Positions 8,958 to 19,076 of a DNA stretch of 57,314 bases are shown piece by piece (position 1 is the stretch's first letter; each line of letters begins with the position of its first letter). The notes under the pieces are model-generated. The model ran no database searches and was not told the origin of the DNA. It worked only from the letters and a program-made list of their open reading frames with translations. The translations under genes were made by a program, and so were the position numbers. Source of the DNA: Candidatus Thorarchaeota archaeon. Lineage in GTDB: Archaea > Asgardarchaeota > Thorarchaeia > Thorarchaeales > Thorarchaeaceae. The DNA lies in the NCBI GenBank assembly GCA_038893995.1, contig JAWAQK010000007.1, positions 1-57,314 of the forward strand, in the 5' to 3' direction.

Positions 8958-11528
8958 TTGGCCATAAGGAGGACATCGGACACGACCAAGAAGATGACTT
9001 CTGTGAGCACCGTTGAAGCGGTGAGACTGGCAACAGTGTCTGTACTTGGGCTAACAACAGCTGACGGACAGATAGTAGGCGGGGCCTCGGGCGCGGGCAA
9101 TCTGCTTGAGGACAATTCCGAAGTGGTATCGATGAGTGTGACATCACTTGTCTCGTCTCTGAGCGATTCCCTGATGTCCTCCGATGGTGCCGACATCATT
9201 GGCATTGAGTGGATTCTCAAGCGCGCAATCACAGACGAAGTGCTACCCGAACAACTGGTCGTCCTCGAGCAGAGGCAGCCAGAGAGCTCGACTGTCGCGT
9301 GCGCCCTGGCATGGGAGAGGGGAATAGTAGATCTGCTCCGAGCGTACGAGTACGTTCAGACAGCATCGAGGAAGATCGAGGACATTCGCGATGCCGCGAT
9401 CAAGAGTGGTCTCGACAGTCTTGAGGTCCCTGCTGTGTTGAAACGTTTTGCTGGTCGGCTGAACAAGGTCTTCCTTGTTGACTTGATGGACCGCCGCTTT
9501 CAGAGCACATGGGACTCAGTACGGGTCCGACCCGACGACATTGACATCGAGACCCAGCTGGTCGTACCTGTCCGAGAAGACTTCACGGCAGTTCCTCCCT
9601 GTATCGTAGTGACCGGAATCAAGGACAGACGCTTCATCCTGCCCGATGCCGATGATCGGACTCTTGTGAATCGCCTGAATCGGATGGTCCTTACGCCATC
9701 CGGTATCTGGTCCCTTGCAGCGAGGGCATCAGAGCTTGGTCAGGCGGTCCTGAGTGAGATAAACAACTACGCGTACAGTACTGAGGAGTATGAGATCGCC
9801 AAGCGCGTAGTGGCGCTACTCGTCAATATCATCGGTTCTGAATCGGTCGCGCTGCATCAGGTCGCTGATGTCATCAAGACGGCAGATGTATTCTCTGCTG
9901 ACTTGGCCACAGGGGCAAGCATAGCAAGCAGTGCTGCTGAAACGCACACCGGGAGCGGCAAGAGCCTCACACTGTCGGAGCATAGGACCGAGATGCTTGA
10001 GTCCCCTCAACTCCTATCAGCGAGAGGTAGGTCGCGAGATGTTGCCACGGGTCTGATCGACACGATGATCGGAGTCCTCGAACGGGACTTTCCCCGTGAT
10101 GAGCAGGTCCCCGCATGGCGTATGAGGAGTTCGATCAGCCATTTCCTCTCAGCATGTCAGCGAGTCGTGACACACTTTGCAGTCGATGTCAGAAGATACC
10201 TGATAGTCGCATCGGCACGTGCCGCCCTCTCGGAGGCGTTCCAGAGATTCCGCTCGCGTGTCATGCTTGGGCTCAGCGACCCCTCTGATCAGCTGCTGTT
10301 TCACAAGTTCTACGGTGAGCTCTACACCCGTCTAAACTCGGTCTTTGACAGATTGAACTATCAGCAGACCATGCCTGAGAGTCTTGAGCACCTGATGAAG
10401 GCAATTGTTGATGATGTCAAGGACTTCTTCGATCAGCTTGACATCTGGAGTCTTATCGACTTTGCGGACGTCGCCCAGATTGCGAGGAGCGAGATTATTG
10501 CACAGCACAGTAGCGGTGGTACGCTTGGTCCACAGGGTGCTGCTCTGGAGAAGATTCTCTCATCCATGGAGTATCTGGTGTCTGACATAGTCCCTGACAT
10601 CGCAGAAACTCTGCTGAATAAGACTGTGATCACCAGGATTGCACCCCTGCTCGTGCATCCGACCAGCACACTCCAGGATACTGTTATCGGGATGCTCCAC
10701 GACAGTCTTGAGAAATCTGACGAATGGTTCAGGGAAGCCTCGTCCTGGCTTGATGACTACTCGCGCACGGTCCAACCCTCTGACCCCCCTCACAAGATGT
10801 TGGAGAAGTTCATTGAACTGGCTCATGAGAAGGTTGGCAGTGGTGTCACAGCCAGATCTGTGCTGGACCGACTTGAGCGAGAGGCTTCAAAGCTCAGATC
10901 AGAGTACGAAAGAGCGGTCGAGACATGGAAGAATGAATGCTCCAGGATCAGGTCTGAGAATGAGGCAATAGCCGCATACAATGAGCGACGTGCTAGGATG
11001 ATCGAGGAGGCGCGTCTCGCATACCAGACTGAGATGAAGGAGTATACTGAAAGACTGCAGTCAGCTTCATCCTCCGGGGGCGTAGCCATTGATCACACAC
11101 CGGTCAGTCTTGCCGAAAGGATCGCCACCATCGAGAAGGCCTATCCTCCCAGAGAGCCAATTCCTACCCCACCTGCCCCTGCAGTGCCTGAGCTGCTCAC
11201 CAACTACGAAGAACTTCGGCGACTGATCGCTGATCGAATGATGCGCATGATGAGTCAACAACGAGACATGGAACTGGTGTTTACTGAGAATCTCAAGTCA
11301 ATACGAGAGGATGTGGCTACTCTGTCACAGAAAGTCCTGATTGATGTCTCCTCCGGACTCCTTGACTTCATCATAAACTCCACCCTAAGACGTCTCAGAC
11401 AAGTACTTCCACTTCCCAATAAGACATACCTACGATTTCAGTCCGATGCCGATTCAATAGGTGTCGTGACCTACGATCTGGAGGGAGATGAGATGTTGAT
11501 CAAGATCGGTCATGCGACGTTGAGGTGA
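8958..11528 (+). CDS. Large hypothetical alpha-helical protein with C-terminal coiled coil and Pro-rich insert
   Basis: 856-aa open frame; GTGA overlap with the next gene. Confidence 0.75.
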   Translation: MAIRRTSDTTKKMTSVSTVEAVRLATVSVLGLTTADGQIVGGASGAGNLLEDNSEVVSMSVTSLVSSLSDSLMSSDGADIIGIEWILKRAITDEVLPEQLVVLEQRQPESSTVACALAWERGIVDLLRAYEYVQTASRKIEDIRDAAIKSGLDSLEVPAVLKRFAGRLNKVFLVDLMDRRFQSTWDSVRVRPDDIDIETQLVVPVREDFTAVPPCIVVTGIKDRRFILPDADDRTLVNRLNRMVLTPSGIWSLAARASELGQAVLSEINNYAYSTEEYEIAKRVVALLVNIIGSESVALHQVADVIKTADVFSADLATGASIASSAAETHTGSGKSLTLSEHRTEMLESPQLLSARGRSRDVATGLIDTMIGVLERDFPRDEQVPAWRMRSSISHFLSACQRVVTHFAVDVRRYLIVASARAALSEAFQRFRSRVMLGLSDPSDQLLFHKFYGELYTRLNSVFDRLNYQQTMPESLEHLMKAIVDDVKDFFDQLDIWSLIDFADVAQIARSEIIAQHSSGGTLGPQGAALEKILSSMEYLVSDIVPDIAETLLNKTVITRIAPLLVHPTSTLQDTVIGMLHDSLEKSDEWFREASSWLDDYSRTVQPSDPPHKMLEKFIELAHEKVGSGVTARSVLDRLEREASKLRSEYERAVETWKNECSRIRSENEAIAAYNERRARMIEEARLAYQTEMKEYTERLQSASSSGGVAIDHTPVSLAERIATIEKAYPPREPIPTPPAPAVPELLTNYEELRRLIADRMMRMMSQQRDMELVFTENLKSIREDVATLSQKVLIDVSSGLLDFIINSTLRRLRQVLPLPNKTYLRFQSDADSIGVVTYDLEGDEMLIKIGHATLR

Positions 11529-13960
11529 TTGAGTTGTCGACGTCATGGTTCTTCAAGTCCCGTCAGATGAGTGAGGCAGGAAAGGAGCTACTGCTGAGGG
11601 AGGCGCTTGTCAGTCACGCACGGAGCTCACGCGATAGGCAGACCCTCGAGACTATTCTGAAAGACAGGCGACCCCTTGAGGACATCCTCTCCTTCTTCTC
11701 ATCCTTCTATCTCTATAACTATCAGGGACTCCGTCTGCTGAAACCGGCGGCCTCCAATACGACCTCGGACGAACAGAGTCAGGCCCTAGTCGATGAGGAG
11801 CGACGACTACTGGAGCTTGAGATAAGACAGCTGCTGGGCGATCGTCAGAGACAGGAGTTGGAGGTCGCAAGACTGGTATCGGAGTCGATCATATTGCTTT
11901 GTGAGGCTGCAGAGGAAGGTCAGGACCATCTTCTGAACGACACGCGTCGAGTTCTCTCTGACCTCTTCAAGTCGATACCGTCAGACTACTGTCCTACGAT
12001 GACTATTGACCTGCTCAATGAGCTGACTGGCTGGGGACAGAAGACGAGAGACGAACTCTATGTCCGAGCCTCGGGTCCTAAGGAGTCATCCCTGTCCCTT
12101 CGTGAGGAGATGATGCGTGAACACGAGCACGAATGCATCGAGATCTCACTCCTGAAGAGAATGGTGCAGAGGATTCGACCTGGGGCAACTCACATAGGAG
12201 AGCTTCTGAACCTCACAGACCTTGATAGTGAGCTCGTGAACGAAATAGTCCAGGCGATCGTGTCCCGGATCCCCCGCAATGTTTCTTCGAGAAGAGCTCT
12301 GATGGCAGCAGAGAAGGTCCGTTCGACCCTCATCGAGACCCTTCAGTCAGAGATTGAAGTGCCTAGAACTGTCTACGAGATGGAACAGCACTTCTCCTCC
12401 ATCGCAGCTCGAAGGCTGCTGGAGGTGTTGAAACAGAGGGAGGTTGACGCAATCGAAGTTCTGGGCGCCTACCTGAGGCTCGACCCTGCTGATGTTCGTG
12501 CTGCACTCAGATCAGGTGGCATACCAGACTCTCCAACACTCCTGAAGGCACTGGAAGGGGTTGGCTCTGCTCAGTCCCAAGAGGAATCAGGGTATTCAGA
12601 TGCCCAGTTCGAGGTCATTGACAGGTCAATCAAGACACTGGAGAGGCTTGAGGGAGTTCTGGAGAAGCAGGTCAAGGGATTCCTCCGATCAAGGGGCTTT
12701 CGGAGTTCGGACATTGAGTCTGTCAGAGTAGACTTTCTAGCCAAGCCGAGAGGGTCACTAATGGCGATCGAACAACAGGTCCTGGATGAACTCCAGAAGC
12801 GAGTACGGGTCCCTCCGCCAGAGGAGGTGGCTCAGCTGCTTGAGGTACGGCGCTCGGCCAGTCAGAGGCAGGGGATCCATGCCGGTCCGTCTCTTGCAGA
12901 GCTGAGCGAACAGCGCAGACTAGCGGAGGTCGGAGTCAACATCGGGAAAGACCTTCTGTGGCATCTGATGGTCTCTGTTGTCACAAACCTGACGAGGATA
13001 CTTGAACTCTACCTACGTTCGAAGCAGGACCTCTTACGGTTCAGGGCACTCCTGAAGAGCATATGGGAGGATCAGGCGTCAGAGTTCCAGTTCGTCAGAG
13101 AGGAGGTGCTTGTTGACGTGCTCAGCAGACGAATGGTCGAGATGAAGTGTGTGCTTCCAGAGCTAGAAACAGAGACGATAAGCATCTGGATGCACTCTCG
13201 ACTGAGCTCGAGTGACTTGACCACCGCCGAGAACGATCTTCGTTCGACTCCCAGTCCGGTCTTTGAAGGGGTCGCAACCCGACCTCTCGACATGGCCTCA
13301 CTCCGGTTTGACAACTATGCCGTCGCCTTTGACATCATGCAGAGGTTCTTGAACCGGCAGCGCCAGGCACTCCTGGAGCGGGAGCAATACGCCTATGAGC
13401 AGAGGCTCAAGGAGCGTGAGCTCACCGAGAGCAAGAAGAAGTCCATTGATGCGCTTCAGTTCATATACACAAAGGCACATACTGTACTCAAGGCGATAGG
13501 CCGGGTTGGAACGAAGGGTCTAGAATGGTCCGGAACAGACTCAGCCAAGTGTTCCAATCTCCTCTCATTTTACGTGGCCTCAAACCGAGGAAGACCAGTA
13601 TGCCAAGTCTGCGGGAGCACGCCCGCGGACGGGGTCTGTCCCACTCACGGGAAGGGCAACATGAGTCTTTCTGACGACTTTGACAGTCTCTCCATCTTCG
13701 TGATGAATGCAATCTCCGACATCAAGAGCGGCCTCATAGGCCCAACTGCCGTTCCAATGAGCTACAGCGAGGCTCGCCAGATAGTTCAGAGAGAGCTGAA
13801 CAACCTCCGTAGGCGCGGAAGGTTGACGTCGAAGACCAACATCAAGGAGCTTCTCCCCGGAGAGGTGAATCACATTGTAGGCCCAGCCATAGCCGAGTTC
13901 ATCGGTTCCTACTTCAACGACTCGCTCAAGTATGCTGCCAGAAGAACGGACTTGGCCTAG
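11525..13960 (+). CDS. Large hypothetical helical/coiled-coil protein with CxxC-x8-CxxH zinc finger
   Basis: 811-aa open frame; CQVCGSTPADGVCPTHG. Confidence 0.75.
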   Translation: MIELSTSWFFKSRQMSEAGKELLLREALVSHARSSRDRQTLETILKDRRPLEDILSFFSSFYLYNYQGLRLLKPAASNTTSDEQSQALVDEERRLLELEIRQLLGDRQRQELEVARLVSESIILLCEAAEEGQDHLLNDTRRVLSDLFKSIPSDYCPTMTIDLLNELTGWGQKTRDELYVRASGPKESSLSLREEMMREHEHECIEISLLKRMVQRIRPGATHIGELLNLTDLDSELVNEIVQAIVSRIPRNVSSRRALMAAEKVRSTLIETLQSEIEVPRTVYEMEQHFSSIAARRLLEVLKQREVDAIEVLGAYLRLDPADVRAALRSGGIPDSPTLLKALEGVGSAQSQEESGYSDAQFEVIDRSIKTLERLEGVLEKQVKGFLRSRGFRSSDIESVRVDFLAKPRGSLMAIEQQVLDELQKRVRVPPPEEVAQLLEVRRSASQRQGIHAGPSLAELSEQRRLAEVGVNIGKDLLWHLMVSVVTNLTRILELYLRSKQDLLRFRALLKSIWEDQASEFQFVREEVLVDVLSRRMVEMKCVLPELETETISIWMHSRLSSSDLTTAENDLRSTPSPVFEGVATRPLDMASLRFDNYAVAFDIMQRFLNRQRQALLEREQYAYEQRLKERELTESKKKSIDALQFIYTKAHTVLKAIGRVGTKGLEWSGTDSAKCSNLLSFYVASNRGRPVCQVCGSTPADGVCPTHGKGNMSLSDDFDSLSIFVMNAISDIKSGLIGPTAVPMSYSEARQIVQRELNNLRRRGRLTSKTNIKELLPGEVNHIVGPAIAEFIGSYFNDSLKYAARRTDLA

Positions 13961-13979
13961 TCAAGTGTGCTGTAGTCTG

Positions 13980-14312
13980 TCAGTGTGGATGTGTCGCCCC
14001 CATCACGCTCGACGATATCCAGTTCAGATACTCTTCAGAGCCAGTGTCTATCCTGATCACGATGAACTCAGGTACCTCGTACGAGTGATGTTGTTTCAAC
14101 ACATCGTGAAGCTGCTTGATTCTGTCGTGGGTCGTCTTGATCAGCAGGATTGACTCGGTATCTCTCTCCACTCTACCTTTCCAGCGATAGATGCTCGAGA
14201 CTCCTCCTATGGTATTGACACACGCACATGTTCTTGATTCTATCAGAGCTCTTGCCAGTGGCTCCGCCTCCTCCGGGCGGCAGGTGGTGATCGCTAGGAC
14301 ATATCGTTTCAT
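13980..14312 (-). CDS. cutA: Divalent-cation tolerance protein CutA
   Basis: CACVN, SIYRWKGRVERDTE, IKTT, HSYEVPE. Confidence 0.93.
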   Translation of the reverse strand: MKRYVLAITTCRPEEAEPLARALIESRTCACVNTIGGVSSIYRWKGRVERDTESILLIKTTHDRIKQLHDVLKQHHSYEVPEFIVIRIDTGSEEYLNWISSSVMGATHPH

Positions 14313-14410
14313 GACTCGAAACTGTGTCGGACTGTAATTTATGCATGAGCCTAGCTGGTTTCGACACATATAATACGGTGTACCACAGCCGGGTCCTCTG
14401 GCTGTTGAGC

Positions 14411-15808
14411 ATGACCAGACGCTTTGTTCCAGGTGGAGTCATGCCTGCCCTTGTGACGCCATTCACGAAGGACGGTGACTTCATTGAAGATGGCCTGAGG
14501 CAGGTCATCGAGTACACAATCCAGAAGGGTGTCTCGGCCATTGTGCCAGGAGGAACCACTGGCGAGTTTGTCTACATGAGGACTGAGGAACGAAAGAAAC
14601 TCCTCAGGCTTGCTGTCGAATTTGCCGACGGAAGGGTTCCTGTCGTCGCTGGAACGGGCCAAAACAGCTCTCGGGCAACACTTGCCCTCACAAAGTACGC
14701 AGCGGATATCGGTTGCCAGGCAGCCCTCGTGGTGTCGCCGTTCTATCTACGTCCGTCTGACAGGGGCTACTACGAACACTATGAGACAGTGGCTCGGCAG
14801 TCGGATCTTCCCATCATCCTTTACAACATTCCCCAATGCACGCTGGGACAACTGAGTGTCAATGTCGTGGAGGATCTGGCCGAGATCGACAACATAGTCG
14901 CAGTCAAGGACTCGAGCGGGAACATACCCTACACGATGGAACTCATCCAGAAGCTCAGCGGCAAGTTGCCAGTACTCATTGGAAACGATGAGTGTGTCCT
15001 TGCTGCTATTACTGCTGGAGCATCGGGTGCGATACTTGCCTCTGCAAACATCATTCCTCACATCTGGATCGAACTGATCAAGTGTGTACAGCAGGGGAAC
15101 ATTGCTCGTGCAGCAGAGCTTCAGCGCTCCGCTCAGACCCTTGCGAGGATAATCTCAAAGCACGGTGGTGCAGCCGCAGTCAAGGCGGCACTGAGATATA
15201 TGGGCATAGATGCTGGACGATCCAGACTTCCTCTCGACTCTGGTGGGACACTGACTGCAGAGGTGAGAGAAGAGATACGTGTCGAGCTCGAATCTCTGGG
15301 TCTCATTTCTCGCCCTGTCGGGGTAAGCACACCAAGTGTACCCCCGATCGGTGAGGTCCTCAGTGAGTCTGGAGTCAGTATCAGTCTTGAGGGAATTCGT
15401 ACAGGGTCCGGGTCGAGTGATCGTGCCAGCGTGACTGTGGCTGCCGGACCAAAGGGAGGTCCCCTGGGTCGGGCATTGGTGAGGCTACTTGTACGTCCCC
15501 GTGTGGGGCGAGAGGCACTCACAGTCATTCTGGAACCCAATCTCCCAGTCCGTCCGATCAGTATCATGTTGCCAGCCAGGAGAGTCAAGTCCCTGCGGCA
15601 GGCCTCTATGATCTACGGACCGGCACAGTCCGGTGCTGCGAGGGCGATTGCCAGCGCCCTGAGCACTGGACGCATACCGAAGGAGTCGGTCGAGAATGAT
15701 GTCATGGTCTTAGTTGTAGACATGGACCTGGACTCCAAGAACAGGCGAGAACTGACAGCCTCTGTGGAGACTGCAACCATGCGCGCGATTGAGGCTATAT
15801 GGAGATGA
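14411..15808 (+). CDS. DapA/NAL-family class I aldolase fused to degenerate formaldehyde-activating enzyme (Fae) domain, copy 1
   Basis: PALVTPF, GGTTGEF, YNIP, KDSSG; C-terminal GPKGGP, EPNLPVRP, YGPAQ (Fae-like). Confidence 0.85.
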   Translation: MTRRFVPGGVMPALVTPFTKDGDFIEDGLRQVIEYTIQKGVSAIVPGGTTGEFVYMRTEERKKLLRLAVEFADGRVPVVAGTGQNSSRATLALTKYAADIGCQAALVVSPFYLRPSDRGYYEHYETVARQSDLPIILYNIPQCTLGQLSVNVVEDLAEIDNIVAVKDSSGNIPYTMELIQKLSGKLPVLIGNDECVLAAITAGASGAILASANIIPHIWIELIKCVQQGNIARAAELQRSAQTLARIISKHGGAAAVKAALRYMGIDAGRSRLPLDSGGTLTAEVREEIRVELESLGLISRPVGVSTPSVPPIGEVLSESGVSISLEGIRTGSGSSDRASVTVAAGPKGGPLGRALVRLLVRPRVGREALTVILEPNLPVRPISIMLPARRVKSLRQASMIYGPAQSGAARAIASALSTGRIPKESVENDVMVLVVDMDLDSKNRRELTASVETATMRAIEAIWR

Positions 15809-17289
15809 ACGCAATGACGGAGGAATTTCGTTTCAAGGGAGTCTATCCGGCGCTGGTCACTCCATTCAATGAGAATGGTGTGGATGAACAGCGGCTTCGC
15901 AACCTGGTAGACTACGTCATAAGAGCTGGAGCTACTGGTGTGGTCCCTTGTGGTACTACTGGCGAGTTCACAAGCATGAGGTTTGACGAGAAGGTCGAGG
16001 CCTTCCGCATAGTGTGTGAGGCTGCCAAGAACCGCGTGCCCGTGATTGCGGGAACTGGAGCTGCCTATACCAACGAGGCAGTCAAGCTCACAAAGAGGGC
16101 AGCAGAGTTTGGTGCTGCCGCTGCTCTGGTGGTCACTCCCTACTTCATGAGACCCTCCAATAGAGAGATCTTTGAACACTTTGAGAGAATTGCTGCCAAC
16201 AGCGACATCCCCATTTTCGTGTACAACATTCCACAGGTTACAGGTGTACCCCTGCACTGGACAGTCGTCGATGGTCTCAGAGAGATCGATGGCATCATCG
16301 GATTGAAAGACTCAAGCGGAGACTTGGTCAATCTGACGACAATACTTGTCAGGAAGCCCGAAGACTTTCAGGTAGTTGTTGGTCACGACGAGGTTGCACT
16401 TCCAGCGCTTGCAGCAGGCTGCAACGGGGCTATCCTCGCAAGCGCCAACATATTCCCGGATCGCTACATCAAGATGCAAGCGGCATTGGCACAGGGTGAC
16501 CTGAAGAGTGCAATGATAATCCAGCGAAGCATACAGACAGCAGTCCGATTGATAGTCAATCGCGGCGGAGGGCTCGCCGTCAAGGCTGCTCTCAACATGA
16601 TGGGCATTGACGTCGGGCCCGCGCGACGGCCTCTTCAGATAGGAGATTCCCTTACGTACGACGACCTTGATGAGCTCCGTACATGCCTCGAGGACCTACA
16701 GCTCATCCCGCGTGGTCCAGTGACGTTCAGAGTCAACGGAAGAGAGATAGTATGTGAGTCGTATCCCAAGGCAGTCGGCCAGTCCCGTGATGTCGTCCCT
16801 GATTTCACTCTCCTGCATGGGGAGGCATTGACTGGTGCCGGACATGAGGTTGCACACGTTGACCTCGTGATGGGGGTCAAGGATGGTCCGATGTCGGCAG
16901 CCATTGAGGACGTTGGCAAGCTGTCTGAGGGCTTCCACCCCTCCAACATAATAGAAGATCTCGTTCCTCTGACGGTCTTCTCCCCAACAGTCAATGTGAC
17001 TGACGAGCGTCACCATCGGATGGTGTACGAGTTTGCTCAGAAGGCGGTCTCAGACGCCGTGAAGAGAACAGTCACTGACAGGATAATCCCAGAGGACCTC
17101 GTGCCCGACATGGCAATAGCAGTCAACGTGTTTGTCCACCCAAAGGCCATCAATCATCGTCGTGTACATCTAAACAACTTCCGTGCTGTGCGATTCGCAC
17201 TTCGAAGGGCGATTGAAGGTCGCCAGACTCCCGACGAGATCATTGCACACATTCGTTCGGCGCGACATCCTTTCGCCTATGACCCCTGA
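15805..17289 (+). CDS. DapA/NAL-family class I aldolase fused to Fae domain, copy 2
   Basis: PALVTPF, CGTTGEF, YNIP, KDSSG; C-terminal GEALTGAGHEVAHVDL, VFVHP, RHPF (Fae-like); ATGA overlap with copy 1. Confidence 0.85.
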   Translation: MNAMTEEFRFKGVYPALVTPFNENGVDEQRLRNLVDYVIRAGATGVVPCGTTGEFTSMRFDEKVEAFRIVCEAAKNRVPVIAGTGAAYTNEAVKLTKRAAEFGAAAALVVTPYFMRPSNREIFEHFERIAANSDIPIFVYNIPQVTGVPLHWTVVDGLREIDGIIGLKDSSGDLVNLTTILVRKPEDFQVVVGHDEVALPALAAGCNGAILASANIFPDRYIKMQAALAQGDLKSAMIIQRSIQTAVRLIVNRGGGLAVKAALNMMGIDVGPARRPLQIGDSLTYDDLDELRTCLEDLQLIPRGPVTFRVNGREIVCESYPKAVGQSRDVVPDFTLLHGEALTGAGHEVAHVDLVMGVKDGPMSAAIEDVGKLSEGFHPSNIIEDLVPLTVFSPTVNVTDERHHRMVYEFAQKAVSDAVKRTVTDRIIPEDLVPDMAIAVNVFVHPKAINHRRVHLNNFRAVRFALRRAIEGRQTPDEIIAHIRSARHPFAYDP

Positions 17290-17500
17290 CCAGTGGTCGT
17301 GGACACACTCGACAATGTGACGTGTTCCTGCACGTAGTGGGCGTTTCGGTCCTACCCTAGGGGTCATTCGACACCTCGTGGCAGAGGGCCCCGTTTCGAC
17401 TGACCTCTCCGTTGACCGTTTCTTAAGTTATTTCGGACAATAACTGTGGACTGCTTCTGACCACTCTTCCGTTTCGATCTCTCATTCACGGCGAGTCCCC

Positions 17501-17917
17501 CAGTGGGCTGTGGAAACGGTCAGGACGGCCTTTCCCTGCGGGGCCGCATGTTATATGTGGAAAGCGGGACACAATTACCAGACTGCCTCCGAAAGGTGTC
17601 TGTTCGGACCCTGTGGTGAGCCGCTGATGTCGGAACCTGCAGAGCGCACTTTGAGTATGTGTCTTATTCTGCAGCATGTGGCAAATCCGCGGCCATTCGT
17701 GGTGCGATACTCACAGGGGCAGTATTCGCAGCTGCCGGGAATGCCGTGGACATATCAGAAGGGGGCGATGATGGGGTACAGGCTTATTCTTGGGCCAGAG
17801 TAGAATCCTCTCAGCGGCTCACGATAGCCATGCTCCACTCGGAGGCGGTCTTCCTCATTCAGATCGACCCTGTCCATCTCCTCTCATAGCTGACTGACCT
17901 GTTTCCGACCAGCACTG
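17501..17917 (+). ncRNA. Candidate large structured non-coding RNA (unassigned family)
   Basis: Nested long-range stems 17501-17523/17894-17917, 17567-17571/17871-17875, 17580-17592/17839-17851 (13 bp, one U-G) and 17616-17627/17811-17822 (12 bp perfect), plus local hairpins, in a 1 kb gap with no credible ORF. Confidence 0.55.
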
Positions 17918-18290
17918 ATCCCGAATCCGGTGCGAGGCATGTCAGTTTCCCCCCTGCCCGCCACGAGCAAGCGGGCGTTTCAGCCTGACAGGTCGTGGTA
18001 CATGATCGCAGATTGGAGTGAAGCGTATTTCGCGCATGTCAGGTCTCAGCATGCTCTTGGATCGTCATCGCTACTGCTCAGATAGGGGTAACTGCCTCAT
18101 CGACCTGGATGAGTCTATTCGCGCCATCTGATAAGGATGTTCAATATGGTCAGGCCATGCTGGTTTCTCTCCCAAGACTGGCCCTTCCGCCGTCCAGTCA
18201 GGCGATGTTGATGGACACTCAATCTATCATGCGGTCTATGGAATGGCCTCGATTGACTACACCCGAATGATCCTGACGCAACTCTGCAGA

Positions 18291-19076
18291 TCATGTCGTA
18301 CATCTGGCGCGCGCCCTGGCCACGAGCGCTGCAAATGCCCCCGCTCCTATGCCATTGCCGATGTTCACGACAGCGAGACCTGGTGAACATGATTGCAACA
18401 TCGATGTGAGGGCGCCAACTCCCTCTCCCCCAAATCCATACCCGGTAGGTGAAGGAAGCCCAATCACAGGAACATCAACGAGAGCGGTCACAACAGCTGG
18501 CAGTGCTCCCTCCATCCCCGCGACAACTATGACTGCCGCCACATCATCGTCCCTCAGTCTTCTTATAGGCTCTAGGAGTCTGTGGATTCCTGCTACCCCC
18601 ACATCGTGAAACATCACCGACTCCACTCCCATGACGCGGGCCACTGCTGCTGCCTCCTCGGCGAGTGGAACGTCAGATGTTCCAGCAGTGATGATGGCGA
18701 TCTTGCCTATCGGCGTTGGAAGCGTCCATTCTGTCTTCCAGGCAAGTATCGTAAGGTGCTCTCCTCTACCGGAGACCCTGAAGAAGCAGTGCGGTAACGC
18801 CTCTCTCAGAGTCTTCTCATGCGACTCCTTTGCTCGCGCGACCAGAGCGAATCCGTTGATGGAGACCATGGCCCTCACTATCTCCAAAACCTCGCTGTCA
18901 TCCTTGTGTTGTGCAAACACTACCTCTGGAATTCCCTTCCTACCATGCCTGCCAAGATCCACGGAAGCAAAGTCGCCGACGATGGCAACTGAGTAGTCCC
19001 TTATCGTCTTCTCGACTTCGTCTATTGAGATCTTACCATTGACTAGGTCCTCGAGCAACATCCTCAGGTCGCGCAT
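18291..19076 (-). CDS. larB: Nickel-pincer cofactor biosynthesis protein LarB (PurE-like)
   Basis: RKGIPEVVF, TAGTSDVPLAEEA, DVGVAGIHRL, AGMEGALP, GYG, MLQSCSPG, VVNIGNG. Confidence 0.9.
   Translation of the reverse strand: MRDLRMLLEDLVNGKISIDEVEKTIRDYSVAIVGDFASVDLGRHGRKGIPEVVFAQHKDDSEVLEIVRAMVSINGFALVARAKESHEKTLREALPHCFFRVSGRGEHLTILAWKTEWTLPTPIGKIAIITAGTSDVPLAEEAAAVARVMGVESVMFHDVGVAGIHRLLEPIRRLRDDDVAAVIVVAGMEGALPAVVTALVDVPVIGLPSPTGYGFGGEGVGALTSMLQSCSPGLAVVNIGNGIGAGAFAALVARARARCTT

Follow-up and report, generated by a model that had tools for sequence, protein, structure and literature searches.

A 57,314-nucleotide stretch of contig JAWAQK010000007.1 from a Candidatus Thorarchaeota archaeon (the window) contains two adjacent genes, copy 1 and copy 2, each of which encodes an aldolase barrel of the dihydrodipicolinate synthase (DHDPS) family followed by a domain resembling the formaldehyde-activating enzyme Fae (Table 1). 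The two products are paralogs sharing 37% identity, and both genes carry the database label 4-hydroxy-tetrahydrodipicolinate synthase (DapA, a lysine enzyme). The open reading frame of copy 1 may open at 14324 or 14411, of which orthologs keep the 14411 start; the longest open reading frame of copy 2 spans 15799-17289 (+) and encodes 496 aa. An earlier inspection of the locus, made without database searches and referred to here as the sequence-only reading, had described coupled paralogs joined by an ATGA overlap. The ATG at 15805 does form this overlap with the copy 1 stop, but orthologs share a different start, the ATG at 15814, which lies 5 nt past that stop, with GGAG 9 nt upstream, and does not overlap. 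The two genes are tightly coupled whichever start of copy 2 is used.

Table 1. Coordinates of the gene pair and its domains in the window, and of the family X genes described in the text.
Feature	Coordinates	Strand	Remarks
Copy 1 ("up", type 1, alpha; P0001)	14411..15808	+	465 aa, barrel then Fae-like domain; without catalytic His and C-terminal arm
Copy 1 aldolase barrel	14432..15289	+	GTTGE, YNIP Tyr and KDSSG Lys intact; Cys at Arg138 position
Copy 1 Fae-like domain	15419..15796	+	GPKGGP, EPNLPVRP and YGPAQ kept; face contacting copy 2 in the model
Gene junction	15799..15816	+	copy 1 TGA 15806-15808; candidate copy 2 starts 15799, 15805, 15814
Copy 2 ("dn", type 2, beta; P0002)	15814..17289	+	barrel then Fae-like domain; His353 and C-terminal arm kept, PNLP loop deleted
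Copy 2 aldolase barrel	15832..16638	+	GTTGE, YNIP and KDSSG intact; Val at Arg138 position, Phe at Tyr107 position
Copy 2 Fae-like domain	16819..17274	+	GEAL, EVAHVDL (His353), DGP, VFVHP and RHPF kept; residues form the modelled copy 1 interface
X	L028:5104-6048, L029:7332-8264(-), L030:5042-5968(-), L031:5049-5984

Profile searches matched PF00701 (DHDPS) over the whole (beta/alpha)8 barrel of both proteins (E = 3e-79 for copy 1 and 2e-73 for copy 2), followed in each by PF08714 (Fae). The GTTGE, YNIP and KDSSG motifs, which hold the equivalents of E. coli Thr44/45, Tyr133 and the Schiff-base Lys161, occurred in both copies and in almost every relative. The profile match and the alignment thus bore out the earlier description of DapA-family barrels with intact GTTGE, Tyr and Schiff-base Lys, each fused to a Fae domain. 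The reported replacement of Arg138 was also seen. In DHDPS this residue binds the carboxylate of aspartate semialdehyde; its position is occupied by Cys in copy 1 and Val in copy 2, and by Cys, Val, Leu, Ala or Met, never Arg, in every fusion examined. Both proteins nevertheless take the database name DapA because they score just above the cut-off of the NCBIfam dapA equivalog TIGR00674 (237.3 and 236.9 bits, cut-off 206.15). The nearest solved structures of both copies were all DHDPS (29-35% identity), and the full-length model of copy 2, which was predicted with confidence (pLDDT 91, pTM 0.89), superposed on DHDPS structures with a TM score of 0.94 and a root-mean-square deviation of 2 Å. 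In DHDPS, Tyr107 reaches into the active site of the neighbouring subunit. This position holds Phe in copy 2 (Tyr-Phe, in at least 95% of thorarchaeotal orthologs) and Tyr in copy 1. Complementary loss of the barrel Tyr107 was dropped as evidence, since it was inconsistent across gene pairs and one pair lacked Tyr107 in both copies.

The Fae-like domains scored 87 bits (copy 1) and 100 bits (copy 2) against PF08714 (cut-off 27), with matches covering positions 11-135 and 2-158, respectively, of the 159-position profile. The pterin site of Fae reportedly lies between adjacent subunits, with His22 as the acid catalyst. The structure of Fae from Methylorubrum extorquens (1Y5Y) was homologous to both domains (E = 4e-19 and 3e-13), and the entries 1Y5Y and 1Y60 hold five chains each, consistent with a pentamer. 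Alignment of copy 1 with 1Y5Y demonstrated the presence of GPKGGP, EPNLPVRP and YGPAQ and the loss of the His motif and C-terminal arm, in agreement with the sequence-only reading, which had noted that the central motifs were kept and GEAL..EVAH.DL and HPF were lost. Copy 2 contained GEAL, EVAHVDL, VFVHP and RHPF, and was missing the PNLPxKP loop and the Gly-Pro of GPAQ. We take His353 of copy 2 to be the catalytic His of Fae (AH(I/V)D motif; His22 of M. extorquens Fae), and the Gln of GPAQ to be Fae Gln88. Retention of the His-side motifs and loss of PNL..KP in copy 2 had been anticipated correctly, but GPAQ is only partly lost: copy 2 of the thorarchaeotal lineage reads FAQ, with the Gln retained, and other lineages carry Met, Ala, Ser or Leu at the Gln position.

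More than 100 orthologs of each copy were recovered at 58-80% identity. Among some 110-120 thorarchaeotal orthologs per copy, the retained motifs were at least 95% conserved and the replacement regions were variable. Given this number of orthologs and this degree of conservation, the pattern is more than chance. In wider alignments (63 relatives for copy 1), the residues that remained invariant down to 34-48% identity were Glu368, Glu375, Pro376, Leu378, Pro382, Arg396, Gly403 and Gln406 of copy 1, and Gly341, Glu342, Ala352, Gly363-Pro364, Phe445-Val446-His447 and His490-Pro491 of copy 2. His353 of copy 2 was conserved at 90% or more in these wider alignments. The observation of two fusions with reciprocal loss of Fae motifs was therefore confirmed.

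Among 1.8 billion representative proteins scanned, only about a dozen clusters at 50% identity had fusion length. Three kinds were distinguished: "single" forms with all Fae motifs, "type 1" forms like copy 1, and "type 2" forms like copy 2. The His was lacking in all type 1 copies, and type 2 copies had the PNLP loop deleted and the Gly-Pro of GPAQ lost. Six gene pairs were found, one in this window, two on metagenome contigs and three in other Asgard genomes, and in each of them type 1 immediately preceded type 2; two single forms had no partner copy alongside. The single-copy fusions, which occur in other Asgard archaea and in Bathyarchaeia, retain every Fae motif. Distribution was examined in 151 genomes of the phylum, 26 of them from the family of the window. 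Fae matches were present in 25 of these 26 genomes, and 24 had a pair of matches in the same order, separated by about 1.4 kb, and no further Fae domain; canonical Fae was found in none of the 26. Genomes of other families carried Fae-Hps (about 235 bits, frames of about 400 aa), either alone or together with a single fusion (about 190 bits, frames of about 500 aa). In a phylogenetic tree, all fusions formed a clade apart from plain DHDPS (100% support), within which type 2 was one clade (99%) nested with the singles (100%), and type 1 fell outside as an unresolved grade. This placement indicates that the pair is an old two-gene module and not a local duplication. Two database relatives, P0249 and P0256 (one type 2, one type 1), have lost the Schiff-base Lys (ILDATG and LADSSG) along with other catalytic residues while keeping the Fae-like domain.

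The two Fae-like domains (residues 298-465 of copy 1 and 303-496 of copy 2, each with its own alignment) were modelled as a 1:1 heterodimer in three runs. The interface score ipSAE was 0.87, compared with 0.00 for the best of three controls; among solved complexes, 58 of 80 reached the mark applied to this score, as did 2 of 110 mismatched pairs. The runs agreed on at least 89% of contacts, with a partner pLDDT of 86. On the copy 1 side, the predicted interface comprises the GPKGGP loop, EPNLPVR (375-381) and the helix at 410-418; on the copy 2 side it comprises HGEAL (340-344), His353, Asp355, DGP (363-368) and the C-terminal arm (476-489). Two heterotypic interfaces are possible, and the model thus adopted the one in which retained motifs face retained motifs.

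Conservation among thorarchaeotal orthologs was higher on the face used in the model than on the equivalent of the other face, both in copy 1 (0.77 versus 0.63, permutation p = 0.008) and in copy 2 (0.81 versus 0.72, p = 0.018), a comparison that is only partly independent of the model because the faces were defined by its contact list. In all six gene pairs, the His face was further from the canonical form in the type 1 protein than in the type 2 protein, and the loop face further in type 2 than in type 1, although these pairs share ancestry and do not represent six independent events. The heterodimer model and the face conservation thus place the retained residues on two faces that are predicted to meet, as had been proposed. 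The further proposal that the two products assemble so that one interface rebuilds a Fae site likewise received computational support from the ipSAE and from the modelled contact between retained motifs. Collectively, these data suggest that a heteromeric enzyme with a split Fae site is the probable arrangement.

Consistent with the H4MPT (tetrahydromethanopterin) pathway that the earlier proposal presupposed, the genome to which the window belongs encodes Mch (two copies), Ftr and Mtd, three of these on one contig; its best Mer-like match was below the cut-off. Since Mch, Ftr and Mtd are present, methylene-H4MPT is a live metabolite in this organism. The two fusions are the sole PF00701 members of this 91%-complete genome, in which profiles for DapB_C (PF05173), diaminopimelate (DAP) epimerase (PF01678), the Asd C-domain (PF02774) and homoserine dehydrogenase (PF00742) found no match; each of these four profiles matched in 9-14 of 14 control genomes. 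Threonine synthase (ThrC) was above the cut-off in all 31 genomes of the family examined for this pathway (470 bits against a cut-off of 303 in the genome of the window), homoserine dehydrogenase was detected in 2 of the 31 and an Asd-type domain in 7, and no GHMP-type homoserine kinase (ThrB) scored above the cut-off. On another contig of the same genome (C54; L022:4230-6151), ThrC stands back-to-back with an archaeal phosphoserine-phosphatase-like HAD-IB hydrolase. This hydrolase, by its weak resemblance to ThrH (homoserine phosphotransferase), is a candidate stand-in for the missing GHMP homoserine kinase.

Two further, uncharacterised families, designated Y and X, were found next to fusions in other lineages. 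Y (426-429 aa) is present in the genome of the window, although outside the window itself (contig C57:5066-6355, equivalent to L037:5066-6355; P0391). Its members are 60-76% identical across Asgard classes, with 64% identity between the copy in this genome and those of other classes, and 8000 of 8000 scored database candidates were significant. Y contains many invariant His, Glu, Asp, Cys and Arg residues, and its AF2 model consists of an N-terminal helical bundle and a (beta/alpha)8 barrel (pLDDT 79). No Pfam, NCBIfam or PDB sequence match was found, and the only Foldseek matches were generic TIM barrels (best E = 1.5e-3). In four loci (L025, L027, L032 and L033), Y is the gene that directly precedes the single fusion. 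In the Fae-less Asgard families f5 and f22 (L038-L042), it is the first gene of a conserved operon with genes for a class I/II aminotransferase, homoserine dehydrogenase (424 bits, cut-off 373), an aldehyde:ferredoxin-oxidoreductase-like protein (AOR) and a PatB C-S lyase, in that order, which suggests a homoserine or aspartate-semialdehyde route in which AOR replaces Ask and Asd. Y thus occurs with homoserine dehydrogenase in some lineages and with the aldolase-Fae fusion in others, a pattern resembling two interchangeable ways of reaching a single metabolite. In many thorarchaeotal genomes, a ThrC-like paralog of about 500 aa (some 320-340 bits to NF006050) lies divergent beside Y (for example G128:C45:6503-9722, G131:C68:5247-8478 and G069:C2:34035-37245); this paralog was not found in the genome of the window by tblastn. 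X (about 312 aa) lies directly upstream of the fusion or the pair in lineages without Y (Table 1) and had no family match. A weak profile similarity between X and Y (hhalign probability 31%, E = 5e-4, common motif FK(V/I)S(I/V)F.G..NP) suggests that X may be distantly related to Y.

Together, these findings suggest a model in which alpha (copy 1) and beta (copy 2) would be subunits of one hetero-oligomeric, bifunctional enzyme. By its sequence, each subunit has an intact class-I (Schiff-base Lys) pyruvate-type aldolase barrel of the DHDPS/NAL superfamily that lacks the Arg for aspartate semialdehyde, together with a Fae-like domain retaining a single side of the pterin/formaldehyde pocket between subunits. 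The GEAL/His353/C-terminal-arm face of beta would meet the PNLP-loop/GPxQ face of alpha to give one complete Fae site per alpha-beta pair. The enzyme would move a one-carbon (C1) unit reversibly between 5,10-methylene-H4MPT and C3 of pyruvate, the Fae site releasing or capturing formaldehyde and the aldolase joining it to the pyruvate enamine to form 4-hydroxy-2-oxobutanoate (HOB). Formaldehyde as the aldehyde partner and HOB, the keto acid of homoserine, as the product follow from the assumption that both domains keep the chemistry of their families. An aminotransferase could then convert HOB to homoserine, so that in Thorarchaeota pyruvate and a C1 unit derived from the Wood-Ljungdahl pathway would provide the C4 skeleton of homoserine and threonine. 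The anabolic direction is likely in Thorarchaeota because ThrC is kept and homoserine dehydrogenase is almost always missing, an argument from genomes that are related and are not independent observations.

We assign a probability of roughly 50% to the statement that the pair is a split-site alpha-beta enzyme carrying out C1-pyruvate chemistry. The specific reaction, pyruvate + methylene-H4MPT <-> HOB (and on to homoserine), is put forward more tentatively on the genomic context, with chances somewhat short of even. The widest version, in which Thorarchaeota and other fusion-bearing archaea make the homoserine/threonine skeleton from pyruvate and methylene-H4MPT and not from aspartate, with the split site between alpha and beta and with Y and X adding steps, is doubtful.

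Several observations weigh against this model. The Fae pentamer is a solved structure, and the success of the heterodimer model may partly reflect likeness to, or memory of, that pentamer. A five-fold (C5) ring cannot alternate two types of subunit, and the assembly must therefore differ from that of Fae; one possibility is that heterodimers of the Fae domains are attached to dimers or tetramers of the barrels. The NCBIfam Fae model TIGR03126 scores both domains below its cut-off of 118 (79 for copy 1 and 108 for copy 2). The aldehyde substrate is read solely from the presence of a Fae domain. No aminotransferase or other pathway gene adjoins the pair within the window. Finally, the fusion and homoserine dehydrogenase occur together in the Asgard families f9, f16, f8 and f18, which argues against strict replacement of one by the other; a strict anticorrelation between the two was accordingly rejected.

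The same split-site enzyme could instead run catabolically, cleaving HOB, derived from homoserine or a related compound, to pyruvate and formaldehyde, which would be trapped as methylene-H4MPT for oxidation or acetyl-CoA synthesis. A similar role has been proposed for Fae-Hps, the canonical Fae of other Asgard families, and by analogy with it such a direction is conceivable. One pair also lies beside genes for a peptide transporter, an aminotransferase, a CoA-transferase and an acyl-CoA dehydrogenase, and the operon of Y, aminotransferase, homoserine dehydrogenase and AOR can be read as one for homoserine breakdown. However, thorarchaeotal genomes retain ThrC without a canonical supply of homoserine, which favours synthesis, and no evident source of homoserine for degradation was found. 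We regard net catabolism as unlikely.

A second possibility is that the two proteins are separate, homo-oligomeric aldolases acting on an ordinary, non-C1 aldehyde, and that their Fae-like domains are non-catalytic relics serving assembly or ligand sensing. The sub-threshold TIGR03126 scores would fit such an origin, each barrel appears from its residues to be catalytically complete on its own, and the persistence of P0249 and P0256 without the barrel Lys indicates that parts of the module can become non-catalytic. Several findings weigh against it, however: the catalytic His of beta and the Gln of alpha are near-invariant across 34-80% identity, the losses are reciprocal and face-specific in six of six pairs, the two genes are strictly adjacent and co-occurring, and the predicted heterotypic interface is both confident and built from retained motifs. 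This alternative is therefore quite unlikely.

A hydroxymethyltransferase acting on another 2-oxo acid, such as a PanB analogue converting 2-oxoisovalerate to ketopantoate, would perform analogous chemistry with methylene-pterin and a 2-oxo acid, but pyruvate is the nucleophile of DHDPS-family enzymes, and the presence of canonical PanB (376 bits) in the same genome weakens this possibility to the point of being very unlikely. A genuine DapA with an accessory domain, as annotated, was rejected as scarcely credible despite the TIGR00674 scores and the DHDPS structures that are the closest to both copies, because the alignment places Cys or Val at the Arg138 position and DapB, DapF (the DAP epimerase), Asd and homoserine dehydrogenase were not found in the genome; neither protein is thus a normal DHDPS.

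The surroundings of the pair in the window were also examined. Downstream, about 1 kb (17290-18290) is without genes, and an Rfam search of 17200-18400 gave no match at E = 0.01 or better. Upstream, 8958-14369 contains a small minus-strand gene and genes for two large proteins of about 850 and 811 aa, both uncharacterised. These upstream genes are syntenic with the pair in three other thorarchaeotal genomes (L034-L036), and none of them was found close to the fusions in other lineages. In locus L001, the single fusion is followed by genes for membrane proteins without a homolog in the genome of the window.

If the split-site model is correct, the name 4-hydroxy-tetrahydrodipicolinate synthase is wrong for hundreds of archaeal genes that bear it, and the conversion of pyruvate and a C1 unit to HOB and homoserine, until now regarded as an engineered route that is not native, would occur in nature coupled to H4MPT. 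Such a reaction would explain why Thorarchaeota keep ThrC without homoserine dehydrogenase. It would give C1 units a new outlet, leading into amino-acid biosynthesis, would stand as nature's equivalent of the homoserine cycle designed in the laboratory, and would offer work on synthetic methylotrophy a dedicated enzyme. The pair would also be a clean natural case in which an inter-subunit active site was partitioned between paralogs after duplication, enforcing a heteromer.

Several known systems resemble the pair in part. With DapA (1XKY, 1DHP; TIGR00674) it shares the fold and the catalytic Lys, Tyr and Thr, and DapA gives its best sequence and structure matches; unlike DapA, the pair lacks Arg138 and has an extra Fae-like domain, and no DAP pathway or supply of aspartate semialdehyde was found in its genome. 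Each copy contains a domain homologous to Fae (1Y5Y/1Y60). However, Fae is a homopentamer with five identical sites, whereas each copy here keeps one face and would need a heterotypic interface. PanB catalyses the net reaction type proposed for the pair, moving the C1 unit from a methylene-pterin to C3 of a 2-oxo acid, but its fold is unrelated and its mechanism metal-dependent. The proposed sequence from pyruvate and formaldehyde to HOB, homoserine and threonine is that of the synthetic homoserine cycle, in which the HOB aldolase step is carried out by E. coli RhmA; there HOB is a non-native metabolite and the condensation of pyruvate with formaldehyde a promiscuous activity (PMC8879981). RhmA, a metal aldolase of class II, uses free formaldehyde as part of an engineered pathway, whereas the pair would be natural, dedicated and coupled to H4MPT.

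The closest parallel is the archaeal bifunctional enzyme Fae-Hps (5,6,7,8-tetrahydromethanopterin hydro-lyase/3-hexulose-6-phosphate synthase; NF009833), in which Fae is likewise joined to a barrel of aldolase type that produces or consumes formaldehyde, in archaea that use H4MPT, including other Asgard families. The pair is not itself Fae-Hps, as the scores of the two proteins, 63 and 88 bits, lie below the cut-off of 274, with the Fae part alone matching. In place of the OMPDC-fold Hps barrel, it has a DHDPS-family pyruvate aldolase of class I; the domain order is reversed, with Fae C-terminal; and the Fae site is predicted to be split over two paralogous subunits. Literature searches on DHDPS-Fae fusions and on Asgard Fae found no paper on this fusion family. 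The pair is thus best described as a variation on the Fae-fusion theme of Fae-Hps, with another aldolase partner and a putative two-subunit split site.

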